Source: Candidatus Sabulitectum sp. (GTDB lineage: Bacteria; Fermentibacterota; Fermentibacteria; Fermentibacterales; JCC-6). Taken from it: a stretch of 64,000 nucleotides of DNA. Position numbers and translations under genes: made by a program. The DNA is taken from assembly GCA_021107435.1 (NCBI GenBank), contig JAIOSV010000089.1:111347-175346 (forward strand). The letters are read 5' to 3'. How positions within the stretch are numbered: position 1 is the stretch's first letter; every line of letters begins with the position of its first letter. This document shows, one piece after another, positions 9,925-58,505 of this stretch. The notes under the pieces are model-generated. The model ran no database searches, had not been told where the DNA came from, and saw only the letters and a list, made by a program, of their open reading frames with translations.

Positions 9925-12900
9925 CTACCTCTCCCTCTCATCAGTCATGTCAAGTTCGACATCCAGAGCAAGGCTCCTCATCTCACTGAGAAGAACATTA
10001 AACGCTTCAGGCGTTCCTCTGGTTTCGACATTCCTGCCATGAACAATTGCCTTATATGCTTCAGTACGCCCATCCACATCATCACTCTTGATGGTAAGCA
10101 TTTCCTGAAGACAGTGTGACGCACCATACGCCTCAAGAGCCCAGACTTCCATCTCACCAAGCCTCTGTCCACCATTCTGGGCTTTTCCACCCAGCGGTTG
10201 CTGTGTAACCATGGCGTATGGACCTGTGGACCTTGCATGTATCTTGTCCTCAACCTGATGAGCAAGTTTCAGCATGTACATTCTGCCTACAGTCACCCTT
10301 TGGTCGAATGGCTCACCGGTTCTGCCGTTGTAAAGAACGGTTTTGCCGTCGCGGCTGTGCCCGGCTTCCTCCAGAAGATCACTTATTGTTTCATTGTTAA
10401 TGCTGTCAAATACCGGAGTTATGGCATTAATGCCAAGATCAGCGGCAGCCATACCCAGGTTGGTTTCCATAATCTGCCCGACATTCATTCTACTGGGCAC
10501 GCCCAGAGGATTAAGGCAGATATCAACTGGTGTGCCATCAGGAAGATACGGCATATCCTCTTCCGGAACGATGATGCTAACAACACCCTTGTTGCCGTGT
10601 CGTCCAGCCATCTTGTCACCGATACGAAGTGTGCGCCGTTTGGCAATGTAAACTTTTACCAGACGAGTAACGCCGGGCTTAAGCTCATCTCCGCGATGGA
10701 GTTTGTCCTCTATACCCTGGTAATTTTCATTCAGCTCCTTGAGCTTGTTCTCTGCGCTGCGAAGGATTCTTCTGGCTCTGTCATCAACCACAAGATCCTC
10801 AACAAGCTGACGATTGAAATCCAGATCAGTGAAATCAACTTTCTTAAGGAAAGTAACAGTAATTTTTCTTCCCTCGGGAATCAACTGCTCACCGGTGACA
10901 CCATCAATGAATGTTGCTGCTTTCTGTCCGGTGAGAACCTCCCGAAGCATTGAATCCCGGTCTTCAAATAGTCGTCTTTCGCTCTCAATACGCTCTTCGC
11001 GAAGTGTGTCAACACGGGATTCTATTTCCCGTCTTCCACGCTCGGTGTCATCTCTGCGGGAGTACACTTTCACATCAACAACAATTCCGGACATACCAAC
11101 TGGAGCCTTCAGCGAAGTGTCTTTCACATCACTGGCTCTTTTGCCGAAAATAGCACGGATAAGACGCTCTTCCGGAGAGAGATCCTGCTCCCCCTTGGGA
11201 CTCACCTTTCCTACAAGAATATCCCCGGCTCTGATCCTGGAGCCAATGCGTACAATACCGCTCTCGTCAAGATTGCGCATTGCGTCACGCTTCTCCGTTG
11301 CGTTGGGAAGATCGTAGGTAAGCTCTTCGGGGCCAAGCTTGGTCTCGCGAAACTGAGTTTCAAATTCAACGATGTGAACAGAGGTGAAGGTGTCATCCTT
11401 AACAACCCTCTCACTAACAACTATAGCATCTTCAAAGTTGTAGCCGTTCCAGGGCATAAACGCTACCAGAGCGTTTACACCAATGGCAAGTCTGCCGTTC
11501 TTTGTTGCCATTCCATCCGCGAGAATATCACCTTTCTTTACCAGATCCCCGATAGATGCGAGAGGCTTCTGATTTACACAGGTATCCTGATTTGAACGTT
11601 CGAACTTTCTGAGGCTATATACATCTTCTCTGTCAAAATCATATTCATCGCCATCAGCTTTAACAACAATCCTGCCAGCGTCAATATGAGTTATGATGCC
11701 TGCTCTGTCAGCTGTGACAAGAGCACCGCTGTCTCTCGCGGCAACCTCTTCCATGCCTGTGCCCACCACCGGGTCTTCAGTGAAAAGCAAAGGCACAGCC
11801 TGGCGCTGCATATTGGAGCCCATTAATGCTCTGTTTGCGTCATCGTGCTCGAGGAAAGGAATCAGAGCAGCTGAAAGTCCTACAAGCTGCATGGGACTCA
11901 CATCAATGTATTCTACTTCCTCAGGGGTAACCATGGGAAAACTTCCGGCCTTTCTTGCCCTTACAAGAGGGCCTGCAAGCCTGTTTTCCTCATCCACCCG
12001 GGAATCCGCTTCCGCTACAGTTGTTCTGTCCTCTTTGTCAGCGGAAAGGAAAGAAACTTCGTTGGTAATCTTTCCGTTAATTACACGCCTGTAAGGAGTT
12101 TCAAGGAAACCAAATCTGTTTATTGAAGCATACACAGAGAGGGTTGTGATAAGGCCGATGTTGGGTCCCTCGGGGGTTTCTACCGGGCAGACACGACCGT
12201 AATGCGTGTGATGCACATCCCTGACATCAAAGCCTGCTCTTTCTCTGGTAAGACCACCCTCTCCAAGCGCACTTGTTCTGCGCTTGTGGGTAAGCTCCGC
12301 CAGTGGATTCGTCTGCTCCATAAACTGGGACAACTGACTCTGTCCGAAGAAGGAGTTTATCACGCTGGAAAGGGTTCTTGAGTTAACAAGATCCTGAGGT
12401 CTCAGCTTCTCCCTGTCCTGCTGTCCCATCCTGTCTTTTATTGTTCTGGCCATCCTGGCAAGTCCCTTTGAAAATTCCTGACCCAGAAGCTCGCCAACGG
12501 TTTTAACTCTTCTGTTACCCAGATGATCGATGTCATCAGAGACATTCGTTCCCTCTCTGAGGCAAATGAGATTATCAACTATTGAGACAAGATCAGGGAC
12601 GGTAAGAGTCAGCTTGTCCATGGATGTGTTTATGTTCAGTCTCTCGTTGAGTTTGTAACGACCCACTTCGCTGAGACTGTATCGTTTGCTGTCAAAGAAC
12701 ATGGATCTGAGGTAACTCCTCGCGTGATCCAGCGAGGGAGCGTCGGTTCCACGAAGAGCCTCGTATATCCACATAGTTGCAGAGGCTTCACTCTTCTCAA
12801 CTCCTGCGCCCAGCGCAGCCTCTTCCTTTGCCAGTGTTCGGCGTATACTGTCGATGCTGTTGCGATCATTACGTGGCTCAAGGAATTTTATCTTTACTAT

Positions 12901-14881: not shown

Positions 14882-15583
14882 CTACCTGAGCAGCGTGCGG
14901 ATATCATTGATGTCCACACGAATGCCGGGGCCCATAGTCGAGGAAACAGACATATTCTTGAGATAACGGCCCTTTACTGAGGCCGGTTTCAGCTGAATTA
15001 CTTTCTCCATGAACGTAAGAATGTTTTCTCTGAGAGCATTCTCTTCAAAACTTGCTTTGCCTACGGGAACATGCACATTGCCGGTTTTATCAACCCTGAA
15101 GCTGATTTTTCCGGCCTTTGCATCCTTCACTGCTGCTCCTACTTCCATGGTAACTGTACCCGTTTTCGGGTTAGGCATCAGCCCTCTGGGGCCAAGAACC
15201 CTGCCGAGTTTCCCTACAACACCCATCATGTCAGGTGAAGCGATAACAACATCAAATTCGAGCCATCCATCAGTAATCTTCCGGGCTGTTTCCTCGTCTC
15301 CGATGAAGTCAGCTCCCGCCGCCTTTGCTTCCTCTGCCTTGTCGCCTCTGGCGAAAGCAAGTACGCGGACAACCTTACCGGTTCCGTGAGGGAGCATACA
15401 GGTACCGCGAACAACCTGATCGCTGTACTTGGGATTCACTCCCAGATTACAGGCGACTTCTACTGTTTCGTCAAACCTGGCAGTAGCAAGTTCCTTGATT
15501 GTCGCAACAGTTTCTTCGAGAGTGTAGCTTTTCTCTCTGTCAACGGCTTCCAGGACTTTCGCAAATCTTTTGCTCTTAGCCAT
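14882..15583 (-). CDS. rplA: 50S ribosomal protein L1
   Basis: [24 protein letters not shown]... is a typical L1. Confidence 0.95.
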
Positions 15584-17282: not shown

Positions 17283-18479
17283 CTACTTTAATACCTTTGT
17301 AACAACTCCTGCGCCTACCGTGCGTCCGCCTTCGCGAATAGCGAAACGGAGGCCCTCTTCCATGGCGATGGGAGTAATAAGTTTAACTGTCATCTTCACA
17401 TTGTCACCGGGCATGATCATTTCCATACCCTCAGGAAGGCCGATAGCTCCTGTAACATCAGTTGTACGGAAGTAGAACTGAGGCCTGTAACCGTTAAAGA
17501 ATGGCTTGTGACGGCCACCCTCCTTCTGGCTGAGGATGTAAACCTCTCCCTCGAAATCGGTATGAGGCGTGATTGAACCCGGTTTGGCGATAACCTGACC
17601 GCGCTCGATCTCATCTTTGCCAACACCCCTGAGGAGAAGGCCTACATTGTCGCCGGCCATGCCCTCATCGAGGATTTTACGGAACATCTCAACACCTGTG
17701 CAGACTGTAGGGCGTGTTTCACGGATACCAACAAGCTCGATCTTGTCCTGTGTGTGAACTATACCGCGCTCAATACGACCGGTGGCAACAGTACCACGGC
17801 CCGGAATCGAGAAAACATCTTCAACAGGCATGAGGAAAGGCTTGTCTGTGTCACGCTCAGGAGTGGGAATCCAGGTATCAACAGCTTCCATGAGCTCATA
17901 AATGCATTTGGCATCAGGATCATCGGGCATGCCTGTGCAGTTAAGAGCCTTGAGAGCTGAACCGCGAATAATCGGGCTCTCTTCTTCAAATTTGTATTTG
18001 TCAAGAAGTTCCTGAACTTCCATCTCTACAAGCTCGATTAGCTCGTCATCATCAACCATGTCTACCTTGTTGAGGAATACAACCATTCTGGGAACATTCA
18101 CCTGACGGGCAAGAAGAACGTGCTCCTTGGTCTGGGCCATAACACCGTCATTTGCACCGATAACAAGAATCGCGCCATCCATCTGCGCAGCACCTGTAAT
18201 CATGTTCTTGATGTAATCAGCGTGACCCGGACAGTCAACGTGAGCATAGTGTCTGTTTTCTGTCTGGTACTCCTGATGGGAAGTGGCGATTGTTATACCG
18301 CGAGCCTTTTCCTCCGGAGCGTTATCAATCTGATCAAATGCCACATAATCCACGTTGTCATGCTGTGTGGCAAGGCACTTGGTGATCGCAGCGGTAAGAG
18401 TTGTCTTACCGTGATCAATGTGACCAATAGTACCCACATTCACATGGGGTTTATTCCTCTCAAATTTTTCTTTGGCCAT
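17283..18479 (-). CDS. tuf: elongation factor Tu
   Basis: [33 protein letters not shown]... is full-length EF-Tu. Confidence 0.98.
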
Positions 18480-46740: not shown

Positions 46741-49008
46741 TTACCTTATTAAAAGCAGGTTCTTCGATCTTGCAAAGCCGTTCTCCAATTTCAGCATACA
46801 GAAGTAGATGCCTGTACACGCACTTTCGCCGTGATTGTTTTTTCCGTCCCACAGTACTGAGTAATTTCCAGCATATTGATTCCCGCTAACCAGTGTTCTT
46901 ATCTCTCTACCCTGAATATCGTATATTTTCAGGGTTATTCCTGTATTGCTTTGCAATTGATATTCTATAATTGTTGATATGTTAAATGGATTAGGATAAT
47001 TCTGCGATAGAGCCATGCCAGCCGGGAGAAATACATCTTCTTCAGCTATCTGCACCAGGCCCGGATCCTGCAATATCAGGAATGAAGATTCTGTGGTAAC
47101 AAACAAATATTGATTAAGCATTGCTACACTGTAACAGCATCCCGGTATCGGGTATTCTTCCACTGCCGATGGTACTTCAGGATCCGATACATCTATCTTC
47201 AGCAAGTTGTAATCTGCGATATAGGCAATGCTGTCACAAACGCAAATACCGGTTGCACTTGTAACATCATCGTATGTGCTGATTATTACCGGACTGCTGA
47301 TATTTGTTATATCAATTATCTGCATACACTGACTGCATACAAGATACACCAGGTCGTCCTGCACTACTATATCCCTTGCGTAGTTGCATGCAGTTGTGAT
47401 AGAAGTTATCAGTTGAGGATTTGATGAGTTACTCACATCCACTATCCATAAAGTATTTTCACCATCTCCGGCGACAAAGGCATATCCATTACTGACACAT
47501 ACCCTGAGTGCGGAATTACCGAGTGCCAATGCACCCATCTCTACAGGGTTTAATGGATCCTGCAAGTCCAGTATTACCAGATCATCATCATCCAGAATGT
47601 AGACATAAGAAGTACCAGCAAATATATCTTTGGCAGAGTACCCGTACTCTCCTGCAAGTTGCGGAGAGTCGGGGTTACTGACATCGAGAGCAATAAGTGT
47701 GGAGGTTGAACTGATGTAATCCTGCATGTAAGCATAGTTGTATTTAACATCAAGGTTATTGGGCAATGCAAACAGACCCATTTCATATTCTCCCCTTGGA
47801 AGGGGATTTTCCGGATTGCTGATATCAATGATTTTCAATCCGCCCGGCACTAAACAGAACTCACCCATATCTGCGATGTACGCAATGTTCCCGTCAATAC
47901 TGACTTCCTGAAGCCAGTAAGGTCTTTCCAGGCTTCCTTCCAGATAAGTACTTGCAGGTTGCTGAATATTCAGTATTTCCAGAAAAGAACCCTCAGATGA
48001 AACCAGATAATCTCCGCTGAGAAAGACCGACCTTACATCATCCATCGTAGAAAATGTCTGGGCTATAAATGGAGCACTAATGTTGGAGATATCAATAACA
48101 TCCATATCGTCAGCGGCAACGAAGACGTAGTTGCCTGCTGCTTTAACACCATACGCAGGTCCGGATGTCTGAATATGCGATTTGAAAACTGGATTTGACG
48201 GAACAGTTACATCAACAATTTCAAGCCCGTTAGTATGGTCTGCTATTATGGCGTGTCCATTTGATATGATTACATCGTTCCCGTAACCGGAAGTTTGATA
48301 GTCTGAAACAAAAACTGGAATCTCGGGAACAGTTATGTCAAGAATCGTAAGCCCCTTGTTCCCCGTATCGGAAATGTACGCATAGTTGCCAACTGCATCT
48401 ATTCCCACGGCTCCCGGTATCGGGAAAAAGCCTACTGAATCGGGTACAGCGGGGTTGGTAACATCAAAAACTTTCATACCTGTTCCGTCAGCCACATAGA
48501 GAACAGCACCGCACAGAAAAAGAGAATGAGCTCTTTGTAAAGGATATGTTGATACGAGTTCCATACTGCTGATATCAATAGTTCGAAGACCGTCTTTGTC
48601 ACCAATATATGCATAATTACCATCAACTATAATATCATTTTTGCCTGTTATCCCTTTGTATCCGCAGGGAATATATAGCTCTGAAACAACTGCGGGATTT
48701 GAAACATCGGAGATGTCAATATGACAAAGACCATTATTGAAGGAGGCCCAGACATCCGTACCTGTGATGAATACATCAGTAACATGAGACCACATGCAGC
48801 TTCCTGCGTACTCAATGTTTTGTTCCCAGGTACACCGATTAATGTAAAAATCGTCACTAACCCAATTGTGTGGAAGAACATTATTCTGATTAGCTCTCAT
48901 AAGTAAAGCTTGAGAGAATGCAGGAATCGCGAAAAAAGTAACTATCAGGGGGAGCAGAATAAATGAATTTACTGCTTCCTTCCCGTGTGATTCTCCTCCA
49001 TTGAACAT
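46741..49008 (-). CDS. secreted LVIVD-repeat beta-propeller protein with T9SS type-A C-terminal sorting domain
   Basis: Signal peptide. Many ~45-aa repeats of the form D[IV]SNP..P..V..Y...G.A.GV.V.GNYAY[IV]AD. C-terminus NYPNPFNISTIIEYQLQSNTGITLKIYDIQGREIRTLVSGNQYAGNYSVLWDGKNNHGESACTGIYFCMLKLENGFARSKNLLLIR is a classical T9SS CTD. Confidence 0.75.
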   Translation of the reverse strand: MFNGGESHGKEAVNSFILLPLIVTFFAIPAFSQALLMRANQNNVLPHNWVSDDFYINRCTWEQNIEYAGSCMWSHVTDVFITGTDVWASFNNGLCHIDISDVSNPAVVSELYIPCGYKGITGKNDIIVDGNYAYIGDKDGLRTIDISSMELVSTYPLQRAHSLFLCGAVLYVADGTGMKVFDVTNPAVPDSVGFFPIPGAVGIDAVGNYAYISDTGNKGLTILDITVPEIPVFVSDYQTSGYGNDVIISNGHAIIADHTNGLEIVDVTVPSNPVFKSHIQTSGPAYGVKAAGNYVFVAADDMDVIDISNISAPFIAQTFSTMDDVRSVFLSGDYLVSSEGSFLEILNIQQPASTYLEGSLERPYWLQEVSIDGNIAYIADMGEFCLVPGGLKIIDISNPENPLPRGEYEMGLFALPNNLDVKYNYAYMQDYISSTSTLIALDVSNPDSPQLAGEYGYSAKDIFAGTSYVYILDDDDLVILDLQDPLNPVEMGALALGNSALRVCVSNGYAFVAGDGENTLWIVDVSNSSNPQLITSITTACNYARDIVVQDDLVYLVCSQCMQIIDITNISSPVIISTYDDVTSATGICVCDSIAYIADYNLLKIDVSDPEVPSAVEEYPIPGCCYSVAMLNQYLFVTTESSFLILQDPGLVQIAEEDVFLPAGMALSQNYPNPFNISTIIEYQLQSNTGITLKIYDIQGREIRTLVSGNQYAGNYSVLWDGKNNHGESACTGIYFCMLKLENGFARSKNLLLIR

Positions 49009-49274
49009 TATTTTCCCTTCGTCCGGAATACAACCATGAGCCAGTATGAATTTACCCGAACTTACAATACCGCTGTCAATGCCGTCCTGTCAACGCAACA
49101 CAAAGCTCTGAGGGCTGCTGCTTTGAAACTCCCCAAAATCACATAATAGAAGCTGTTTGGGAATTCGCGGGACGATTCCACTTTAAGGAGCACAGCTCCT
49201 GCGTTGACAAACCGGTGCACTCCGTAATAAGATATGAAATGTGTCCCACTGACAAATGAAAGGACAGATCCTTC

Positions 49275-49826
49275 ATGCCTTCAAAATTCTCATTCATACT
49301 CATTCTGGCAATTGGTGCAGGACTTCTTTTTATTGCTGCTTACTTCATGAGTGATGCCTCAACAAGTAAAACCATCATACAGGAAAGCCGTCGGTTGGAA
49401 TACGAACCTATAGAATACCTGCGTAATCAGGATCCCATTGAGTACACCAGCAGAAGGTGGGAAATAGATAACCGGTATGACGCTCAACTGAATATCATCA
49501 TCCTTCATAAGGAAGCAGGAGCCTGGGGCGCTGGAATCTTCGGGGTTCTTCTTATCATGCTTGGAACTATAGACTTCAGACTTTACCGCAGAAGATGTTC
49601 TCAACGTCAGAAGGGCATTCTCGCCAAACTGGTAGAGCAACACATAGATGCTCTTCTAGCAAAACGGGATGATGTGTTCAACGCGGGAAACGCAGAAAAG
49701 TGGACTTTCGAGAAATCAATATTCATCGAGAATGTATTCAGCAAAGAGAATACCGGCAGACTTCTGTTCAACAAAGAAGAGATATCCACAATGATAGATC
49801 AGATCATAGATGGAACTCTGGAATAG
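49275..49826 (+). CDS. hypothetical membrane protein (2 TM)
   Basis: TM helices at residues ~5-25 and ~82-100. No known motifs. Confidence 0.4.
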   Translation: MPSKFSFILILAIGAGLLFIAAYFMSDASTSKTIIQESRRLEYEPIEYLRNQDPIEYTSRRWEIDNRYDAQLNIIILHKEAGAWGAGIFGVLLIMLGTIDFRLYRRRCSQRQKGILAKLVEQHIDALLAKRDDVFNAGNAEKWTFEKSIFIENVFSKENTGRLLFNKEEISTMIDQIIDGTLE

Positions 49827-49969
49827 AAAAAATCTTCAGCTCCAAACGGTCTAACTTTCTGGTTCCTCTCTGTATTTACATACCGATTCGCATTGTTCTT
49901 CAAGATGAGAGGTTGCTTCGGACGCAGAATTCGAATCCCGTTTGGGGTGCCAGGTAGAACAACTTCTAC

Positions 49970-49998
49970 AGTTCGATAAGCATACACTACGAGGTGCC
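49970..49998 (+). repeat. cassette-boundary-like direct repeat, copy A
   Basis: AGTTCGATAAGCATACACTACGAGGTGCC. Four near-identical copies lie downstream at B-E. Confidence 0.6.
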
Positions 49999-50217
49999 CG
50001 GGAATGATTCGTAATAGTCAACAATTGACATTCAGGGAAAACTGAGAATTGCAAAATCTAACTTAAGGGGTGTCTATTTTGTTGGGGGCCTTTCTTCACC
50101 AGTCTTGACTTCTATCAAAACAGAGAGAATATTACCATTGCGGTTGAGAGGGCTGCCATGGCGGTTCGTTGAACTTTTGTTCACTTGGCTGCATTTTTCT
50201 TTTTCTGGGGGGCATAA

Positions 50218-50985
50218 ATGCATCTGTTGTATCTTGATGACTCTGGATCAGCCCCGAATAGGAATGAGCAATACTTCATCCTTGGGGGACTCTCAGTTTT
50301 TGAAGCTCAAGCACATTGGTTCACTAAAGAGCTAGACACGCTTGCTGAAAGCATTGACCCAAAGAATCCACAGAGTGTTGAATTTCATGCTTCAGAAATA
50401 TTCTCTCGAAGAAACGCACCTTGGAAAGGTATGAGCCGTGAGGAAGCAAAAGGTATTATCAAGTCAGTTTTAAAAATACTTGCTGGTTCATACGATAGTG
50501 CCAGAGCATTTGCTTGTATCGTTCACAAGGACTCTTACCCTGGGCGAGATCCAGTTGAATTGGCATTCGAGGATCTTTGCAGTCGTTTTGATATATATCT
50601 TTCCAATCTTCGTGATTCTGGAGACCGTCAGCGTGGTCTCTTGATTCTGGATGAGTCGGCTCATGAAACATCATTGCAAGGCATGGCAAGAGATTTTCGT
50701 ACGCTTGGTACAAGGTGGGGAGTTCTTCGAAACCTTGCTGACACTCCTTTCTTCGTCAACTCAAAAGCTTCCCGACTTGTTCAGATGGCAGACCACATAG
50801 CGTATGCAACATTTCGCCGATATCAAATGTGTGATGCTCAATACTTTGATATTATATCAAGTAAGTTTCACAGTGTTGGTGGCGTTATTCATGGACTTTC
50901 TCACAAAGAAAACGAGAATCCCGAGTGCATGTGTATTGCCTGTTTAAGTCGTCGCCTCTCAGGTGGTCGTGTTCCCACTGAATAA
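50218..50985 (+). CDS. DUF3800 family protein
   Basis: N-terminus MHLLYLDDSGS is typical of the DUF3800 family. It sits between repeats A and B. Confidence 0.6.
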   Translation: MHLLYLDDSGSAPNRNEQYFILGGLSVFEAQAHWFTKELDTLAESIDPKNPQSVEFHASEIFSRRNAPWKGMSREEAKGIIKSVLKILAGSYDSARAFACIVHKDSYPGRDPVELAFEDLCSRFDIYLSNLRDSGDRQRGLLILDESAHETSLQGMARDFRTLGTRWGVLRNLADTPFFVNSKASRLVQMADHIAYATFRRYQMCDAQYFDIISSKFHSVGGVIHGLSHKENENPECMCIACLSRRLSGGRVPTE

Positions 50986-51036
50986 GGGCATGAATCTGGT
51001 TCGCTTTTATAACCTCATATCAAATTTAACTATGGA

Positions 51037-51062
51037 AGTTCCAAAAGCATCCACTACGGGGT
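51037..51062 (+). repeat. cassette-boundary-like direct repeat, copy B
   Basis: AGTTCCAAAAGCATCCACTACGGGGT, identical over 26 nt to copy C. Confidence 0.65.
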
Positions 51063-51131
51063 ACTGTAATTCCTTCCAGCGATTGTTAGACTGGTAAGCA
51101 CTACGACTGGATACAAAGACATTTTCATAAC

Positions 51132-52382
51132 CTATAATCGCAATACCTTTTTCAGATCCTCATGCTCGAACGCCGATGACATGCGCTCTATCTCTGAAGT
51201 TGACAACCCATAGCTCTGCGCTACACTACGCCACTCTGCGATTGCTGCCGCAATGACTCGAACATAATCTTTTGCCCTTGCAGGGCTTACATCAAAATAA
51301 TCAGCTACCTCAAATGCTAACTCAATTGAAGCAGTTTGATCATCTATATCAATGGCTGAAGATAGAATTCTTGGAGCCAGGTCTGTTGGAGTAGGGTTGA
51401 GGTCGTAGGCTGGAGATAAAATCCATCCCTCCCTCCCATAGTATAGAAATCCATGATTTCTCATGTGATCATCTATGTTGGAGATCAAGACAGTTACAAC
51501 AATCCTTTTCCATAGTTCATGCATGTCTTTCTTCGGAAACGCTCCGTGGCTTCTGATTTTATCTGCGAGCTCAAGGTAGCTGTGTACTTCATTATCTTTC
51601 GCGGAAATCATACTCATGCCTGATAAAAAAGGAATTCTTACTTTCCCTTTTCTATCAAAACGTTTCAGAATCAGTATGTCCCTGCCGTTAATTGACCTAA
51701 GGCTTCTTTCAGGCACTCTGATCCCTGACCGCTCTGCCAGGTCAAGAGCGATTGCTTCCCAGACGATTCGATTATGGTCATCAACATTATTCGGGAATTT
51801 AGCTATGAAAAGCTGAGAGTCTTTCTGCACCGATGCTTTTGGCTGAGCACCACCCAAAGAAGAACCGGGAGCAAGAAGCAACCTGAGGTCTTCACTTGTT
51901 TCTTCTTCTTGTAACAGCTTATCTGAAGCCGCAAGTAGTCTTGGAAGATCAACTAAAGGAGGAATGCTGTTTCTAGTACTTTTTGCCAGGAAGGGACCAC
52001 CCTCCGATAAAGAAAATCTCAGAGCACCCATGCGGGTTTCATCATTTACCCCAAGCAGGTAGTCAATTTCTCTTAATGTGCGAGGAGTTCTACCTTCTGC
52101 TTTATCAGTTCTTCGAGCGAATCGTCGCATAAGAATTCGACCCCATCTATCGGGAGCAGAATCCCCAATTGTGCCAAAGATTGATAAACCAATTCCCGTA
52201 TGGTATGGTTCTTCCTTGACTGACAAAGCTGGTTCGAGAGCAAAACAAGATGGAGATTGCATCCAAGACCGGGCATATTCAAATGTTGCACTCTCTCTTC
52301 GTCCTCGAATGTGTATCCACAAATGACCTACATGGTGTGCGTGTCCTTCCAGGTCAATGTATACGAAAACTGACTTTCCCAT
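51132..52382 (-). CDS. hipA: type II toxin HipA-family serine/threonine kinase
   Basis: HipA N-terminal domain (VFVYIDLEG...GDSAPDRWGR) and C-terminal catalytic motif NIDDHMRNHGF. Confidence 0.85.
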   Translation of the reverse strand: MGKSVFVYIDLEGHAHHVGHLWIHIRGRRESATFEYARSWMQSPSCFALEPALSVKEEPYHTGIGLSIFGTIGDSAPDRWGRILMRRFARRTDKAEGRTPRTLREIDYLLGVNDETRMGALRFSLSEGGPFLAKSTRNSIPPLVDLPRLLAASDKLLQEEETSEDLRLLLAPGSSLGGAQPKASVQKDSQLFIAKFPNNVDDHNRIVWEAIALDLAERSGIRVPERSLRSINGRDILILKRFDRKGKVRIPFLSGMSMISAKDNEVHSYLELADKIRSHGAFPKKDMHELWKRIVVTVLISNIDDHMRNHGFLYYGREGWILSPAYDLNPTPTDLAPRILSSAIDIDDQTASIELAFEVADYFDVSPARAKDYVRVIAAAIAEWRSVAQSYGLSTSEIERMSSAFEHEDLKKVLRL

Positions 52383-52386
52383 GGTA

Positions 52387-52737
52387 TTACTTCCTGTTGA
52401 TTAGCTCTCTTTTATTCCTGTGGATTCTTTGGGGTAACTGCTCTTCCTCAAGCAGTCGCCCCAGTGAATCGTATTGAGAATCAGCTAGTTCCCTGAGTCT
52501 TTCAAGAAGATCCATAGCGTGTAGAACTGAGCCAAGTATTCCTATCGAAATCCCCGGATCACCCTTTTCCAATTTAGCAAGAGTAACTCTGCTGACTCCA
52601 GCTCTTTCAGCCACAAGGCTCATAGGGAGTCTCCTGCGTCTTCTTGCATCTTTGATATCTTCTCCAAGTTTTCGCAGAACTCTTAGAACTGGAATTGGTC
52701 TCTTAGTGCCATGCTTCTGGTAATCCATAGCAAACAT
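52387..52737 (-). CDS. hipB: HipB-like XRE-family HTH antitoxin
   Basis: HTH LPMSLVAERAGVSRVTLAKLEKG. It lies 4 nt upstream of hipA. Confidence 0.7.
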   Translation of the reverse strand: MFAMDYQKHGTKRPIPVLRVLRKLGEDIKDARRRRRLPMSLVAERAGVSRVTLAKLEKGDPGISIGILGSVLHAMDLLERLRELADSQYDSLGRLLEEEQLPQRIHRNKRELINRK

Positions 52738-52827
52738 CCTTAGCGTTAAACATAGTAAACGTTATCAAGGTTAATGTAAAGAATGTTTAACATTAAAACA
52801 AGAGCGGTGCTTTCTTGCTATCATGTC

Positions 52828-52856
52828 AGTTCCAAAAGCATCCACTACGGGGTGCC
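52828..52856 (+). repeat. cassette-boundary-like direct repeat, copy C
   Basis: AGTTCCAAAAGCATCCACTACGGGGTGCC. Confidence 0.65.
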
Positions 52857-53002
52857 AGAGTAAGAGGCTTCGATTTCATTATAGGCACTCAACCTTTCAT
52901 TCACTATCTGGATAAGCAAAGGAAACCTGTTTTCAGGAATTTGGATGAGATAGATTTGACTCGTATGCATAAATTGTTATACTTGTGCATAAGGAGGTTG
53001 AG

Positions 53003-53206
53003 ATGAGAACTACTTTAAATCTGCCAGAGGAATTGTTACTTGAAGCAATGGATGTCACTCATATTGGGACCAAAACAAGAGTAATTATTATTGCCCTTCA
53101 AGAGCTTATTAGAAGGAATAGAATCACCGAGCTTAAGAAGTTCAAGGGTAAGATTGATCTTGAAATAGATATGGACGTTTTGCGGAGTAGAGAATGCAGG
53201 TCTTAG
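53003..53206 (+). CDS. vapB: VapB-family antitoxin
   Basis: MRTTLNLPEELLLEAMDVTHIGTKTRVIIIALQELIRR is the typical VapB N-terminus. AAGGAGG SD. Overlaps vapC by 13 nt. The track start at 52985 is a GTG. Confidence 0.7.
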   Translation: MRTTLNLPEELLLEAMDVTHIGTKTRVIIIALQELIRRNRITELKKFKGKIDLEIDMDVLRSRECRS

Positions 53207-53574
53207 TTGATAGCTCCATCTGGATTGATTATTTCAAGGATGGACGGAGATCTGAGAAACTTGATTACTTGATTGATGAAAACATTGTAGTGACCAATGA
53301 TTTGATTCTTGCTGAACTTATCCCTTTTTTGAGGATAAGAAACCAGCGTAAAATTGCAGGATTGATGGAAACCATAAAGAAACTCAGTATGGATATCATC
53401 TGGGATGAGATCATCGAGTATCAGTATATGTGCTTGAAAAAAGGAGTGAACGGAATAGGGCTGCCTGATCTGGTTATTGCACAGAATGCTAAGCAACATC
53501 ATGCTGAAATTTATACGCTCGATAGTCATTTTGCGATGATGAAGAACATACTGGAACTGGAGCTCACCATTTAA
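53194..53574 (+). CDS. vapC: VapC PIN-domain ribonuclease toxin
   Basis: MQVLVDSSIWIDYFKDG then DLILAEL... and a C-terminal acidic residue give the PIN acidic quartet pattern. Confidence 0.85.
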   Translation: MQVLVDSSIWIDYFKDGRRSEKLDYLIDENIVVTNDLILAELIPFLRIRNQRKIAGLMETIKKLSMDIIWDEIIEYQYMCLKKGVNGIGLPDLVIAQNAKQHHAEIYTLDSHFAMMKNILELELTI

Positions 53575-53639
53575 CCTGATCGTGCTGGAGTTCGCTGTTA
53601 GAGTAAATTCGTCAAGAAGCTGGAACTTTCTCTATAAAG

Positions 53640-53668
53640 GGTTCGATAAGTATCCACTAAGAGGTGCC
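53640..53668 (+). repeat. cassette-boundary-like direct repeat, copy D
   Basis: GGTTCGATAAGTATCCACTAAGAGGTGCC. Confidence 0.6.
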
Positions 53669-53704
53669 GGACAGGCAGGCACATGGAACTTCGCATGCTG
53701 CTGA

Positions 53705-54157
53705 TTAACCGTTCAGAGCCTCCGGTAACTTCATTACAAAATCTCTGATCTCGTCTCTCACTCTGCGATAGTGTACAAGAACTTCTTCTTCGGTTGCCGC
53801 GTTTTCAGCAAGCCTGGGCGGATCATCAAATCCTCTGTGAATGATTCCGGTTTTAGCGGGGAAGTAAGGGCAGTTTTCGTTTGCGTGATCGCAAACTGTT
53901 ACCACATAGTCAAAGTCTTCTTCATCAATCTCATCAACCGTTTTGCTGAAATGATTGGATATGTCAATACCGATTTCATCCATTACCTTTACTGCAAGCC
54001 GATTGAGCCCGTGCTTCTGTATTCCCGCTGAGAAACACTCTATACCGACATACTTCAGGTGCCTGCAAAATCCCTCTGCCATCTGACTTCTGCATGAATT
54101 ACCGGTGCAGAGAAAAAGTACTTTCAGCCTTTCATTCATCTTCCTGGCCTTGCTCAC
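53705..54157 (-). CDS. arsC: arsenate reductase (thioredoxin-coupled, LMW-PTP fold)
   Basis: VLFLCTGNSCRSQMAEG is the CX5R P-loop. The two downstream Cys (TVCDHANENCP) are characteristic of the Bacillus-type ArsC. Confidence 0.8.
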   Translation of the reverse strand: MSKARKMNERLKVLFLCTGNSCRSQMAEGFCRHLKYVGIECFSAGIQKHGLNRLAVKVMDEIGIDISNHFSKTVDEIDEEDFDYVVTVCDHANENCPYFPAKTGIIHRGFDDPPRLAENAATEEEVLVHYRRVRDEIRDFVMKLPEALNG

Positions 54158-54222
54158 TTACTGGATGGCTGTTTTACAACCTGCTGATCATTAATTCGGG
54201 ATATTCCCGAGCGACAACCGAA

Positions 54223-54254
54223 CCGGCATGCCCTTGTAGTATAGGGCATGCCGG
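54223..54254. other. perfect 11-bp-stem palindrome CCGGCATGCCC-N10-GGGCATGCCGG
   Basis: Seen directly. A second palindrome CGGGATATTCCCG lies at 54196-54208. Both are between the arsC start and the phoU stop. Confidence 0.5.
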
Positions 54255-54344
54255 CGAGGAGGGATGCTTGACCGGAACAACCGGATGAAGCGCAGGCTCT
54301 TACTTACCTGCCTTCATAATTAAGTACCCCGGATATCAGGAAAT

Positions 54345-54382
54345 AGTTCCAGCGGGGGAGCCGACACACAGGGGGTGAAACC
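54345..54382 (+). repeat. degenerate copy E of the cassette-boundary repeat
   Basis: AGTTCCAgcgggggagccgacacACAGGGGGTGAAACC. Both ends match copies B and C, with an insertion in the middle. Confidence 0.35.
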
Positions 54383-54432
54383 GTGCGCCGGCTCTGTTGA
54401 TCCGCTAACCCGGAGGAATCAAGCGCGGACCC

Positions 54433-55086
54433 TTAGTTAAGATCCACAGGTACACCGGTGACGGTGAAGATCACTCTTTCGCAGATATTCACTACTCTGT
54501 CGCCTACACGTTCAATATTGTGGGCAATCCAGTCCAGCATCATTGTCTGCTCTATGTTGGACGGCTTTTCCATTATGAAGGTGATAAGCTCTCTGTGTAC
54601 CTGATTGTAGAGAACATCAATCTGAAGATCTCTCGCCGGAATATTCCGGGCCGCTGTCTCATCATCCTCGGTGAAAGCCCTGATGGCATCGTCAAGCATT
54701 TCTCCGGCAATCTCTTCCATTCTCGGAATGCTGAGAAGGGGCTTTATCAACTCTCCAGGTCCGATCTTCTGGCTGATCCTGGCAATTCCCTTGGCGTAAT
54801 CACCTATTCGCTCAATCTCAGTTGATATCTGTAAAACTGAAAAAAGCAACCGGAGATCGGTGGCTACCGGCTGCTGTGTTGCTATGATGTTCAGGCACTG
54901 CTCCTCTATTTCAAGGCACTTGAGATTAACAATTTCATCTGATTCAATGATCATAGCAGCACCCTGCATATCCCTCTTCTCAAGATATTTTACCGATGCT
55001 GTGAGGTTTTTTCTTACCTCACTGGTAATCTGGAACAAGTTCCTTTTGAGTTCCTGAAGTTCTCGGTCAAAACTCTCTCTACTCAT
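54433..55086 (-). CDS. phoU: phosphate signalling complex protein PhoU
   Basis: Two PhoU repeats with (E/D)xxxD metal-binding motifs. The ATG at 55086 has an AGGAGG SD. The track start at 55182 would overlap pstB. Confidence 0.9.
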   Translation of the reverse strand: MSRESFDRELQELKRNLFQITSEVRKNLTASVKYLEKRDMQGAAMIIESDEIVNLKCLEIEEQCLNIIATQQPVATDLRLLFSVLQISTEIERIGDYAKGIARISQKIGPGELIKPLLSIPRMEEIAGEMLDDAIRAFTEDDETAARNIPARDLQIDVLYNQVHRELITFIMEKPSNIEQTMMLDWIAHNIERVGDRVVNICERVIFTVTGVPVDLN

Positions 55087-55099
55087 TTTTTTCCTCCTG

Positions 55100-55891
55100 T
55101 CAGCCGAAGCGGCCACTGATGTAGTCTTCGGTTCTGGAGTCCGAAGGAGTAGTAAATATCTGCTTTGTAGGGCCAAGCTCAATCAGATTGCCCGCTCGCT
55201 TCTCATCGGTAAGCATGAACGCTGTGTAGTCACTTACCCTTCCGGCCTGCTGCATGTTGTGTGTAACTATAGCTATTGTGTAGTTCCTTTTCAGCACATT
55301 CATCAGCTCCTCTATCTTCAAGGTTGCAACCGGATCAAGGGCTGAAGCGGGCTCGTCCATCAGGATCACTTCAGGCTCTATTGCAATAGCTCTGGCTATG
55401 CAGAGTCTCTGCTGCTGTCCACCCGAAAGAGACATCCCCGATTTGTGCAGGTCATCCTTTACCTCTTCCCACAGGGCTGCTCTTTTCAGGCTCTTCTCCA
55501 CAATAACCGCAAGGTCGGAGCGGTTTTTCGTACCGTGGAGTCTGGGTCCATAAGCTACATTATCAAAGATGGATTTGGGGAAAGGATTCGGTCTCTGGAA
55601 AACCATGCCCACTTTTTTGCGAAGTTCTACAACATCTTCCCTTGCAACATTCCTGCCATCCAGAAAAATCGTTCCAGCAGTGGTTACACCGGGGATCAGG
55701 TCATTCATCCGGTTGAAACTTCGGAGAAGAGTACTCTTGCCGCATCCCGATGGCCCGATGAAAGCAGTTATCTTGTTTGTGGGAATCTTAATATTGATGT
55801 TGTTCAGTGCCTTAAAGTCACCATAGAACAGGCTGTAATCCTCCGTCATCATTCTTGTCTTCTCTGCTCTTTCAGCTTCCAATTTGTTCAC
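55100..55891 (-). CDS. pstB: phosphate ABC transporter ATP-binding protein
   Basis: Walker [10 protein letters not shown], signature [16 protein letters not shown] and a PstB-specific N-terminus. Confidence 0.95.
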
Positions 55892-56742
55892 CCCTGCTTC
55901 GTTGAGATTCTGCTGGTTATGGTGTTGATTGTGAGATTCATGATAATTATCAAAGCTACCAGTACAGCAGCGGTAGACATTGCTTTATCGAAAGCCCGTG
56001 TTTCCATGGCGAGATAGTAAACATGAAGAGCCATGGTTCTGCCGCCGGACATCAGGGAATGGGGAACTCTGTAACTGCCACCCAGTGTTACGAAGAAGAT
56101 CGCAGTTTCACTTACGATTCTTCCGGCACTGAGCAGGATTCCCGTGGATATACCCCGGAGTGCCGCCGGCAAAACGACCTTCCAGGTGGTTTCCCAGCGG
56201 TTTGCGCCAAGAGCCAGAGAGCCTTCTCTGTAGCCCTGTGGAACAGATTTGAGAGCTTCCTCTGTGGTCCTGATGATTACCGGGATAATCAGGCAGGCTC
56301 CGGCAAGAGATGCGGAGAGGATTGAAAATCCCATGTTAAGCGCTGAAACAAACAGGGCATATCCGAAGAGACCGAAAATAATAGACGGGACACCGGCCAG
56401 TGTCTCTATGCCGAATCTTGCAATGCTTACCAGTTTGCAGATCGCCTTGTTGTCAATGTTGCTTGAGTATTCGGTTAAGTATATGGCTGCTCCTACCCCC
56501 AGGGGTGTGGCGAAAACCAGCGTTACAACTATCATATAAAAAGTTGTTACTATGGTAGAGTAGATACCTCCATCTCCTGAAAGCCCTCCACGAGGTGAAG
56601 TTGTGAAAAAATCAGCGGTAATCCCGGGAAGCCCCTTCACCATGATATAGCCAACAACGAAACCCATAATCAGCACCGCGACCGCACCGGTCAGCCAGAA
56701 AACTCCGAATGCAGTGTTCTGGGCTGCATTCCTTTTTTTCAT
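55888..56742 (-). CDS. pstA: phosphate ABC transporter permease PstA
   Basis: Six TMs, an EAA-like loop, and the pstC-pstA-pstB order. Confidence 0.9.
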
Positions 56743-57638
56743 GACTTCACTCCCATTTTCATAAGGAATCTGGCCGAACCGTTGACCAGCATGATCAGGA
56801 TGAAAAGAACCACTCCAGTGGCAAACAAAGCACTCTCATGAATCCCGGTTGCATAGGAAATCTCAACTGCAATGTTACCTGTAAGGGTTCTGGCTCTGCT
56901 CAAAAAGATGCTGAGAGGATTGTCTGTGATAGCTGTGGGAAGAATCACAGAGTTTCCAATTACCATTATCATGGCAATTGTCTCCCCCAATGCTCTGCCC
57001 AGGCCTAGAACAACTGCGCTGATAATTCCGGGTTTTGCAGCGGGAATGATCACCCTTGAGATGGTCTCCCACTTCGTAGCACCCAGAGCCAGTGAGCCTT
57101 CTTTATACCCCTTCGGTACACTTCTGATGGCAAATTCCGAAATATTTGCTATTGTGGGTAGTATCATTACTGCCAGAACAATAGATGCCGCGAGTAAACC
57201 ATACCCGGCGTTGCCGGGAGCCGGGATTGTTCTCACCAGAGGAACAAGAACCACCATTCCAAAAAGACCATAGACAACAGATGGGATTCCGGCAAGCAGT
57301 TCAATAGATGGTCGAACGATTCCTGCAATCCAGCAGGGGGCAATCTCGGAGAGGAACACGGCAGTGCCCAGAGCAAGAGGAACACCGATCAGCACTGCCC
57401 CAAGAGTAACAAGACCACTTCCGGCAATCATTGCCAGAATACCGAACTGGTCGTTACCCGGTCTCCAGGTGGTATCAGACAGCATTTTCCAGACACCGAT
57501 CTCCCGAAACGCCGGCGTGGCCTCTTTCATGGTGAAGATGAAGATCAAAAGCACAATCAGAACCGATGCCAGAGCAGATATCAGCAGAACCGTCTTCATG
57601 GCCTTTTCGATTCCAGTTCGCCGGGTTCCGGAAGTCAT
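56739..57638 (-). CDS. pstC: phosphate ABC transporter permease PstC
   Basis: Conserved pst permease with the SEIAP...region. Confidence 0.9.
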   Translation of the reverse strand: MTSGTRRTGIEKAMKTVLLISALASVLIVLLIFIFTMKEATPAFREIGVWKMLSDTTWRPGNDQFGILAMIAGSGLVTLGAVLIGVPLALGTAVFLSEIAPCWIAGIVRPSIELLAGIPSVVYGLFGMVVLVPLVRTIPAPGNAGYGLLAASIVLAVMILPTIANISEFAIRSVPKGYKEGSLALGATKWETISRVIIPAAKPGIISAVVLGLGRALGETIAMIMVIGNSVILPTAITDNPLSIFLSRARTLTGNIAVEISYATGIHESALFATGVVLFILIMLVNGSARFLMKMGVKS

Positions 57639-57653
57639 TGTTTGTTCTCCCTG

Positions 57654-58505
57654 CTAATTTATGGGCAGGTAGCCCTCAGCAGCAACTATTGCCTGACCGT
57701 CTTCACCCAGTATGAACTCAAGCCATTCTGCAACTGCACCGGTGGGCTCTCCGTAAGTAACCATGTTCAGGGGTCTTACCACTGGATAGCTGCCTTCGTT
57801 AACGTTTTCAGGAGTGGGGAAAGCTCCATCGATAGCGATTGGTTTTGTGCTGTCATCAAGATATCCAAAGCTGATGAAAGTTATTGATCCCGGCGTTGTA
57901 ACCACAGTTGTGCGGATAGCTCCATTGGAAGGCTGAAGAATAGCGGTTGCACTGATGAACGCATCCTCCATCACGAGATCCTCAAAAGCTGAACGGGTAC
58001 CGGAACCCTCTTCACGGGAAGCTACTGTTATTATCCCGGGAGTTCCACCGACTTCGCTCCAGTCCGTGATCTCTCCGGCAAAAATCGCTCTTGCCTCATC
58101 AATACTGAGTTCATCAACATCAACATCGGGGTTAACCACGATGGCTATACCATCGCGGGCAATTGTGTGGATTACTATTTCCGGGCACTCTTGAATCTCA
58201 CTGGCTTTGATCTCTCTGGATGCCATACCGATGTCGGCGCTCTGCTCTGAGGCGCTCTTTACGCCAACGCTGCTGCCACCGCCGCTGACGGTGACAAGTA
58301 CATTGGGATCAATCGCTTCATAAGCCTCACTGAGAAGCTCTGCAAGGGGCTGAACAGTCGTGGAACCGACCACACTGATCTCTACTGTTTCAACGGCCTC
58401 AGTACTTGTCCCGTCTGCATCCGGTGTTTCTACTCCCGGCTCACCGCAGGCACCAAGAAGCATCATTGAGGTCATGACAATCATTGTTGTTATTTTTCTT
58501 TTCAT
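57654..58505 (-). CDS. pstS: phosphate-binding protein PstS (lipoprotein)
   Basis: Signal peptide plus LLGACG lipobox. GSTTVQP...GSGT motifs are those of the PstS family. Confidence 0.85.
   Translation of the reverse strand: MKRKITTMIVMTSMMLLGACGEPGVETPDADGTSTEAVETVEISVVGSTTVQPLAELLSEAYEAIDPNVLVTVSGGGSSVGVKSASEQSADIGMASREIKASEIQECPEIVIHTIARDGIAIVVNPDVDVDELSIDEARAIFAGEITDWSEVGGTPGIITVASREEGSGTRSAFEDLVMEDAFISATAILQPSNGAIRTTVVTTPGSITFISFGYLDDSTKPIAIDGAFPTPENVNEGSYPVVRPLNMVTYGEPTGAVAEWLEFILGEDGQAIVAAEGYLPIN

Follow-up and report, generated by a model that had tools for sequence, protein, structure and literature searches.

The 64,000-nt stretch of the genome of a Candidatus Sabulitectum sp. analyzed here (contig JAIOSV010000089.1; the whole stretch is referred to below as the window) carries four same-strand copies of a 29-nt repeat, which we call REP29 and whose family consensus is AGTTCCAAAAGCATCCACTACGGGGTGCC; they bound three gene modules, a DUF3800 gene, a hipBA pair and a vapBC pair. 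REP29 is a junction between modules, and the modules that it bounds reassort between genomes. On balance, and with somewhat more confidence than doubt, we favor the reading that REP29 joins the units of a gene-cassette system, repeat-delimited and restricted to one lineage, in which a sequence-specific enzyme encoded at an unlinked position would exchange the units. Site-specific exchange by an enzyme, its circular intermediates and the class of that enzyme are what we infer.

Searched with the degenerate consensus of an earlier reading of this DNA (hereafter the initial annotation) at up to three mismatches, the window yielded four plus-strand matches vs. 0.00 expected in 100 dinucleotide shuffles. 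A position weight matrix (PWM) derived from 52 family members gave the same four sites 37.7-52.6 bits, while no other position of the window, on either strand, scored above -2.9 bits and the maximum in shuffled sequence was +9.9 bits. The initial annotation had counted five copies; four are real, but the fifth, at 54345, is noise (gapped score 15, below the 95th background percentile of 16, and not among the top PWM sites). It had also placed each copy in an intergenic gap, which is correct for the four (A-D below), and had described B and C as identical over 26 nt, as direct reading and the pattern search both bear out. The copies, with a decayed relative upstream, are as follows.

49970-49998 (plus strand): REP29 copy A, AGTTCGATAAGCATACACTACGAGGTGCC, 'CGATAAG' sub-type, 42.1 bits
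51037-51065 (plus strand): REP29 copy B, canonical CCAAAAGC sub-type with the final 3 nt diverged to ..TACT, 46.4 bits
52828-52856 (plus strand): REP29 copy C, equal to the family consensus, 52.6 bits
53640-53668 (plus strand): REP29 copy D, 'CGATAAG' sub-type with the unusual GAGG also seen in copy A, last copy of the array, 37.7 bits
49925-49953 (plus strand): 'copy 0', a decayed REP29, TTCGAA-[5-nt deletion]-TCCCGTTTGGGGTGCC, marginal from sequence alone

The conserved stretch measures only about 29-30 nt, and the flanks of the copies fail to align (±80 nt compared); copies A and D carry 3-5 substitutions each. Copy 0 has a gapped score of 18, above the 95th but below the 99th background percentile, and falls in the direct-repeat family D4; with a perfect palindrome and copy A coming after it, it holds the first place in the repeat-palindrome-repeat layout typical of related loci. 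An open frame through the repeat (F-Q/D-K-H-P-L-R-G-A) was considered as coding sequence and rejected, because the substitutions are by inspection not codon-like and one copy contains a stop. The four copies of the window occupy 3.7 kb, with none in the remaining 60 kb despite many intergenic regions, and in every related locus REP29 is likewise clustered in arrays, which is not the genome-wide scatter of a repetitive extragenic palindromic (REP) type of repeat.

With a relaxed 27-mer pattern we scanned one genome per species (185,579 species) and, in addition, metagenomes. The first scan returned nine contigs, all from metagenome-assembled genomes (MAGs) of Ca. Fermentibacteraceae or Ca. Sabulitectum and several of them from one MAG, and the second added 14 loci, giving 23 loci other than the window. 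Genomes with REP29 include JAGLOJ01, JAGLDY01, JADGDO01, JAGLQD01, JAOZRM01 and JAUVIS01. An nhmmer profile located about 70 copies in these loci, 2-7 per locus and 38 to ~3000 nt apart, with uniform orientation within every locus. All REP29 data come from metagenomic fragments, and the arrays break assemblies; short-read contig ends coincide with REP29 (L002 ends at window position 52857, L007 at 50001, and many of L008-L030 in the same manner), and in the source population of the window such breaks are assembly collapse only. In these scans the family is restricted to this lineage. No match came from viral contigs, PLSDB plasmids or GenBank phages, and Aegiribacteria-type contigs, which are more distant and carry the same family of secreted proteins, have no REP29. 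Our searches of the literature on Fermentibacterota and on integron-like repeat arrays turned up no description of the element. A diverged 29-mer resembling REP29 (AGTTCTGAAAGGATCCGGTATGGCGTGCC, 22/29 matches) lies at 18215-18243 on the minus strand of L045/L046, a more distant relative (PhoU 78%), beside a pair of nucleotidyltransferase (NTP_transf_2/Polbeta) genes, and the family may extend past the reach of exact-pattern scans.

The role of REP29 as a joint is seen in all-against-all blastn comparisons, in which blocks of homology stop within 1-7 nt of the outer edges of the repeats. A hicAB cassette of 627 bp, measured from repeat to repeat, is common to L009 and L030 (90% identity) and is also present in L016, L020, L023 and L024 with different neighbours; window positions 49970-50957 match L010 961-1 at 94%, the match beginning with the first base of copy A, upstream of which the DNA is unrelated; and cassettes with ParDE (L012/L016) or a HipA-like protein (L024/L026) show the same behaviour at their edges. 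Module content in relatives is not fixed: the same cassettes stand in different neighbourhoods, and the site occupied in the window is empty or refilled elsewhere. The initial annotation had named two outcomes that would refute its reading, copies throughout ordinary intergenic DNA and a constant set of modules among relatives; both were checked, and neither check refuted it.

The state of individual repeats follows these exchanges in one informative case. A pair of repeats with a palindrome between them (REP_a-palindrome-REP_b) lies upstream of ParDE in three genomes; REP_a is canonical only in L016, the sole genome with a changed upstream neighbour, and REP_b is canonical only in L012, while the remaining orthologues have accumulated 7-9 substitutions plus an indel, though their flanks are ~80% identical. 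Since the canonical repeat coincides with the changed neighbour, canonical sequence tracks the formation of junctions and not a uniform constraint. Renewal of sites by exchange with other copies, with decay otherwise, would fit this pattern better than uniform purifying selection does. Copies of REP29 are moreover identical at 29/29 positions between genomes with ~72-80% backbone identity.

A well-preserved site is a composite of ~110 bp, made up of REP29 and palindromes, as expected of a recombination locus recognized by proteins. A 16-nt palindrome, GTAGAA-N4-TTCTAC, recurs at fixed offsets from REP29 (-27/-28 and -5/-6 upstream; +3 or +12, and +25 downstream), and perfect 6-N4-6 palindromes are found at 3.0/kb within 60 nt of the repeats vs. 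0.40/kb elsewhere (7.5-fold). 'Empty' stretches consist of tandem [REP29-pal1-pal2] units of 75-83 nt, and tight pairs of repeats usually read [CC(A/G)AAAGC or CTAAGAG sub-type]-palindromes-[CGATAAG sub-type]. The arms are identical in 15 of the 19 perfect palindromes, which do not separate a hairpin function from half-sites for dimer binding; a few variants alter both arms jointly (TTAGAA/TTCTAA, CTATAA/TTATAG). Two palindromes are listed for the window, of which only the first is intact; degenerate traces follow copies C and D.

49954-49969 (unstranded): perfect palindrome GTAGAA-CAAC-TTCTAC, GTAGAACAACTTCTAC, abutting copy A
51067-51080 (unstranded): weak palindrome variant GTAATTCCTTCCAG after copy B, resembling the CTGTAA-N4-TTCCAG variant of L012 and L029; read by eye, without statistics

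REP29 itself lacks dyad symmetry, as its left arm and the reverse complement of its right arm match at no more than 5 of 11 positions. Single-stranded DNA folds of 141 nt around copies A-D gave z values of -0.75 to +0.63 on the two strands relative to 200 shuffles, with no attC-like hairpin, and no inverted R''/R' boxes or inverted partner were found around the copies. The core at the junction is GTTC(C/G)(A/G) (reading GTTCGAT or GTTCCAA) in place of GTTRRRY, and its fourth base is C across the ~70 copies. These results do not support the suggestion of the initial annotation that the repeats belong to an integron, to a cluster of attC sites lacking an integron integrase (CALIN) or to a new attC family. 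Neither ARAGORN nor Rfam placed a tRNA, a tmRNA or any other RNA at the repeats of the window, the sole local Rfam match being the DUF3800-VI motif listed below, which is unrelated to REP29, and nothing in Rfam 15 matched the composite of repeat and palindromes at E<=1.

Two further structural ideas were rejected. A stem between REP29 positions 12-19 and the downstream AGCGAATG had a mean of 4.45 pairs in true vs. 4.42 in permuted combinations, with six or more pairs in only 3 of 55 copies; and apparent 'split' repeats, with cargo inside REP29 as a mark of the crossover, proved to be complete degenerate or internally deleted copies. In L014 (2424-2577) a 122-nt insertion splits one REP29 behind position 19, and the repeat picks up again at 17-18; this interruption is genuine but is an unrelated small insertion, possibly mobile and with a duplication of 2-3 nt.

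Within the window, the cassettes and the insertion that contains them are as follows.

50141-50191 (plus strand): DUF3800-VI RNA motif (Rfam RF02915; 61.7 bits vs. a gathering score of 35) in the 5' leader of the DUF3800 gene, cassette 1
50218-50985 (plus strand): cargo of cassette 1, DUF3800 protein of 255 aa (Pfam PF12686, E=3.4e-16)
51132-52737 (minus strand): cargo of cassette 2, hipA (51132-52382) and a helix-turn-helix (HTH) antitoxin gene (52387-52737) (Pfam HipA_C E=1.1e-41, HTH_3 E=1e-6)
53003-53574 (plus strand): cargo of cassette 3, vapB (53003-53206) and vapC with a PIN domain (53194-53574) (Pfam VapB_antitoxin E=1.1e-10, PIN E=6.6e-10)
49828-53749 (unstranded): whole insertion relative to the orthologous locus of Ca. 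Fermentibacteraceae BB12, ~3.9 kb, bounded by the 3' end of a 183-aa gene and that of arsC

The identities given to DUF3800, hipBA (inverted), vapBC and arsC by the initial annotation agree with Pfam, and the hipA/HTH pair is oriented opposite to the repeats. Three of its four modules stand, but arsC is syntenic backbone, located beside phoU in relatives without the array. To the right of the array Pfam identifies an ArsC of the low-molecular-weight phosphatase type (LMWPc) and PhoU; the gene to the left, described as a housekeeping membrane gene, encodes a 183-aa product with no family match. The region is low in GC as stated (0.38-0.45 vs. ~0.47-0.52 elsewhere), but the drop starts at ~46.7 kb and not at 49.97 kb. 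The DUF3800-VI motif moves with the DUF3800 cassette, a full-length match being present also in L010 (738-788, minus strand). On the best reading, the window holds a small, partly decayed three-cassette array that looks old.

Among the 23 other loci, the cargo between repeats includes ParE/ParD, HicA/HicB, HipA-like kinases, Fic, DUF6088, SLFN/AlbA_2 ATPase and AAA ATPases, together with a nucleotidyltransferase pair and many secreted proteins with FG-GAP repeats and signals of the type IX secretion system (T9SS). The arrays occupy at least four unrelated chromosomal contexts, and one MAG (JAGLOJ01) has several in different contexts (L010, L012, L015). Many cassettes (L011, L018, L020, L021, L027 and others) encode paralogous secreted proteins with an N-terminal 'QTDWSGGPGV', FG-GAP repeats and a T9SS sorting tail, and the arrays may also diversify surface proteins. 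They act as graveyards of insertion sequences (IS) too, with truncated remnants directly beside REP29 in L017 (192-506, IS3 rve_3), L020 (2432-2629, ISL3) and L030 (2-220, IS91-like).

The same chromosomal site was reached in relatives through PhoU homologues. Ca. Fermentibacteraceae BB12 (L041, a 338-kb contig; PhoU 86% identical) has the backbone gene order of the window, pst-phoU-arsC-188aa-AAA_26-...-PolyA_pol-Gate-APH, with arsC and the 188-aa gene abutting. In blastn, window 49203-49827 corresponds to L041 11996-11359 and window 53750-57998 to L041 11313-7105; the DNA in between is probably an insertion in the window, or else BB12 carries a deletion. The island is flanked by a direct repeat of ~9-10 nt (CGGTCTAACTT at 49847-49857 and CGGTAACTT at 53743-53751) that is present once in BB12 at ~11330; it could be a target duplication left by a founding insertion, or microhomology at which BB12 lost the DNA. 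In L043 (PhoU 90%) 7.6 kb of unrelated genes separate arsC from the 183-aa orthologue, and in L048 (PhoU 90%) yet other genes follow arsC. From these comparisons, the space separating the 183-aa gene from arsC, whose 3' ends converge there, is a general hotspot of variability with the REP29 array as one occupant.

Both arsC, syntenic beside phoU in the array-free L041, L043 and L048, and a hairpin at 54216-54249 are kept by relatives with different islands or none, and they are therefore backbone; the palindromes at 54196-54254, proposed earlier as a possible end of the array, thus belong to the pst/phoU-arsC backbone and do not mark that end. The last ~10 codons of arsC (window 53705-53750) differ among L041, L043 and L048 (133, 143 or 144 aa), and since homology to the window ends within the 3' end of arsC, the right boundary of the hotspot lies inside coding sequence. 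A gene for a 755-aa LVIVD-repeat, T9SS-sorted protein (46741-49008, minus strand) is low in GC, missing in L041 and devoid of REP29 flanks, and is a second indel of the same hotspot. In the REP29-free island of L043, direct repeats of 107-300 nt (11583-12164 and 15036-15465; 98-99% identity, 3.3-3.45 kb apart) flank DUF6036, 339-aa and methyltransferase genes; they are another kind of duplication or recombination substrate.

In the mechanism that we propose, a cassette would be a unit running from one REP29 to the next, whose cargo may lie in either orientation, is self-contained, brings its own expression signals and consists mostly of toxin-antitoxin (TA) pairs, defence-type ATPases and secreted surface proteins. 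An enzyme that breaks and rejoins DNA, encoded elsewhere in the genome, would recognize REP29, and the GTAGAA-N4-TTCTAC palindromes at fixed offsets are probably accessory binding sites. If one class of enzyme had to be named, we would choose a site-specific recombinase of the tyrosine type that works on duplex DNA. Were two direct repeats to recombine, the interval would be released as a circle with one REP29, which could be re-inserted at any REP29 in any array; all joints would then carry repeats of the same orientation whatever the direction of the genes, recently recombined sites would be canonical, and idle sites would decay. We favor enzyme-mediated circles because direct repeats stand at the joints, cargo orientation is mixed, units are re-used and there are several arrays per genome, and because an asymmetric 29-mer is kept across ~72-80% backbone identity with accessory motifs at offsets in helical phase. 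An enzyme acting in trans would have a precedent in Xer on pdif modules (PMC9947245).

A number of results weigh against this explanation. The Pfam survey of ~50 ORFs of the window (essentially all of at least 90 aa) revealed no integrase, recombinase or transposase, in agreement with the initial annotation, which had noted no integrase there, and the 23 loci contain none except decayed IS remnants. As core sites of tyrosine or serine recombinases go, REP29 is unusual in lacking dyad symmetry. The empty junction of BB12 has no REP29, and the islands of L043 and L048 occupy the same hotspot without it; variability at the locus is therefore independent of the repeat, and the proposal does not account for the founding of the arrays. 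The sites of the window are degenerate (a single intact palindrome, and the substitutions in A and D), and the array may be inactive. The contigs of the source population are all 100% identical in one fixed order, with no strain variation, and no circular or alternative junction was found among them.

A less probable account, which nevertheless deserves weight, is that REP29 is a passive dispersed repeat with another role (nucleoid, regulatory or partition binding, or a selfish repeat similar to a REP element, a bacterial interspersed mosaic element (BIME) or a miniature inverted-repeat transposable element) and that only occasional RecA-type recombination or replication slippage reassorts the DNA between copies. 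In its favour, no dedicated enzyme or intermediate was found; the 'empty' arrays are BIME-like mosaics of repeat and palindrome in tandem; and islands at the hotspot vary even without REP29. REP sequences recognized by the transposases known as RAYTs start with GTAG, as do the palindromes described here. On the other hand, 29 bp lies at the lower limit of what RecA recombines efficiently, the other 60 kb of the window has no copy, the repeats keep one orientation per locus with boundaries precise to a few nt, and REP29 itself is not palindromic. Identity at 29/29 positions across ~75% backbone, next to decayed orthologues, points to sequence-specific renewal.

An HUH-type enzyme (rolling-circle, of the IS91/ISCR or Rep/relaxase-like kind) could instead nick one strand at REP29, guided by the neighbouring hairpins, start at one copy and stop at the next, and re-insert the resulting single-stranded circle at another copy; this is a serious alternative to a tyrosine recombinase, although we judge its probability to be low. 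It would account for repeats strictly on the same strand irrespective of gene direction. Many HUH origins have a hairpin adjoining a conserved non-palindromic sequence, which recalls the short hairpin-capable palindromes beside REP29, and the joint changes in both arms of some palindromes point the same way. REP29 begins with GTTC, the target tetranucleotide of IS91, and the IS91-family transposase remnant of L030 abuts a repeat (E=2.8e-4). That fragment, however, is truncated, matches weakly, is unique among the 23 loci and occurs alongside unrelated IS3 and ISL3 remnants elsewhere, and it was rejected as the enzyme; no intact HUH gene was seen. Identical arms in most palindromes make for thin evidence of pairing, and the folds of the window sites are no more stable than those of shuffles.

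Accretion of tandem attachment sites, in which islands integrated at the 3' end of an RNA gene, duplicated the att core and lost their integrases in the manner of a tycheposon or a cis-mobilizable element (CIME), is largely refuted and very improbable. Direct repeats do stand at every joint, preservation is not best in the copies most distant from copy 0, and copy 0 resembles the 3' end of a tRNA (TTCGAAT-CCCGT-TTGGGGT-G-CCA). It is, however, simply REP29 minus 5 nt, and a derivation of the repeat from a tRNA or tmRNA was rejected, as no such gene occurs at the array (ARAGORN and, for the window, Rfam) and ARAGORN found 0 in the 23 loci. Arrays in at least four unrelated contexts, modules of 0.6-1.8 kb without integrase remnants and an empty site without an att-like REP29 also speak against it.

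The idea of a true integron or CALIN, with the repeats as unusual attC sites recombined by IntI, is the least probable of all, because the conserved part is only ~29 nt and asymmetric, with no imperfect inverted-repeat architecture or stable hairpin on either strand, the core departs from GTTRRRY and the genes are in mixed orientation, even though TA/defence cargo and array layout resemble those of sedentary chromosomal integrons and a close relative (L048) has an IntI-like gene. No Phage_integrase was found in the ~50 ORFs of the window or in the 23 loci, and hence no intI and attI beside an array, as a complete integron would have. The gene of L048 (3939-5117, plus strand) encodes an IntI-like tyrosine recombinase (TIGR02249, 247 bits vs. 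a cutoff of 265; PDB 2a3v, IntI4, E=7e-44), is preceded by an intergenic region of ~970 nt and is probably inactivated, as its catalytic HTLRH box reads FTLCV. It was rejected as the enzyme because of this degenerate box, its position beyond the pst operon and the lack of REP29 on its contig; it is evidence that the lineage has genes of the IntI type but does not link them to REP29. Long contigs with the T9SS cargo family, examined for a linked recombinase, proved to belong to more distant lineages that lack REP29.

The arrays share features with several known systems of modular gene transfer, and the REP29 system fails the defining features of integrons/CALIN, rAID-1, pdif modules and IS26 units. 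Like integrons and CALIN, it has small, independently mobile modules, each with a site-like repeat, rich in TA and defence genes, cassette content that varies between genomes, and no adjacent integrase, as is often so in CALIN. In contrast, attC is an imperfect palindrome of 55-140 nt conserved in structure, whereas REP29 is an asymmetric 29-mer conserved in sequence; REP29 cassettes carry genes in both orientations with their own leaders, and there is no linked IntI and no GTTRRRY. The rAID-1 clusters of Bacteroidales consist of a 5' recombinase of the XerD family followed by co-directional orphan immunity genes (bioRxiv 10.1101/471110). They, too, are non-canonical integron-like arrays of low GC with repetitive intergenic sequences between small accessory genes, in the Fibrobacteres-Chlorobi-Bacteroidetes (FCB) group; REP29 arrays differ in having no adjacent recombinase, mixed gene orientation and TA, defence and secreted cargo.

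The pdif sites recognized by XerC/D consist of two imperfectly inverted 11-bp arms around a 6-bp centre and switch orientation from one to the next around modules, unlike REP29, whose arms match poorly and whose copies are all direct on one strand. They nevertheless offer the best precedent for an enzyme acting in trans, as the pdif modules of Acinetobacter plasmids are discrete, often carry TA or resistance genes between ~28-bp sites and are moved by a recombinase encoded elsewhere in the genome (PMC9947245, PMC9771954). IS26 units and pseudo-compound arrays have the identical topology of repeat, cargo and repeat with all repeats direct, but IS26 is an 820-bp IS encoding a DDE transposase, while REP29 is non-coding, 29 bp long (~110 with palindromes) and without an ORF. 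In an IS26 unit, a repeat and the adjacent segment are excised as a circle and re-inserted beside another copy. The term translocatable unit is used in PMC9771954.

Tycheposons (mentioned in PMC11389934) and CIMEs resemble the arrays in their tandem cargo between direct attachment repeats, with many segments lacking an integrase of their own; REP29 arrays differ in having no tRNA or tmRNA, a repeat that is not a tRNA 3' end and much smaller modules. The REP/BIME-RAYT systems share mosaic clusters of short extragenic repeats and GTAG-initial palindromes, but REP29 is not palindromic and its copies are, in the metagenomic fragments available, confined to variable islands at breakpoints of gene content. 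Unlike repeats of CRISPR arrays, REP29 copies are 38 to ~3000 nt apart with whole genes between them, the short 'spacers' are conserved palindromes, and no cas domains appeared in the Pfam survey of the window ORFs.

It is possible, and we put this forward as a tentative proposal, that REP29 and its palindromes form the site of a new system of cassette capture and shuffling, parallel to integrons in function and distinct from them in evolution and mechanism. Of the initial annotation's proposal of an undescribed cassette system with a recombination-site-like repeat unlike attC, the modules and the repeat stand and the system may well be undescribed, but the driving recombinase is something that we infer. 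The core of such a system would be asymmetric and 29 bp long, the attC hairpin would be absent, and the enzyme, encoded at an unlinked position, could be an atypical tyrosine recombinase, an HUH nuclease or of a new type. If the system exists, it would point to a DNA enzyme that recognizes an asymmetric 29-bp target by sequence and is of biotechnological interest. The question is open to experiment, as the site is known to the base, ~70 natural copies are available, and one locus has been seen empty, filled and in alternative states. Short-read assemblies break at cassette joints, and REP29 arrays are therefore systematically under-represented in MAGs.

The hosts, Fermentibacteraceae, are uncultured bacteria of sediments and digesters, which under this proposal would stock and exchange TA, defence and surface-protein genes at several arrays. 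Modular gene capture has its textbook case in integrons, and the same logic has arisen independently in Xer/pdif modules and in IS26 units. If the proposal is true, REP29 would be a further independent solution, in an uncultured phylum of the FCB group, and would broaden the view of how bacteria keep 'libraries' of accessory genes.

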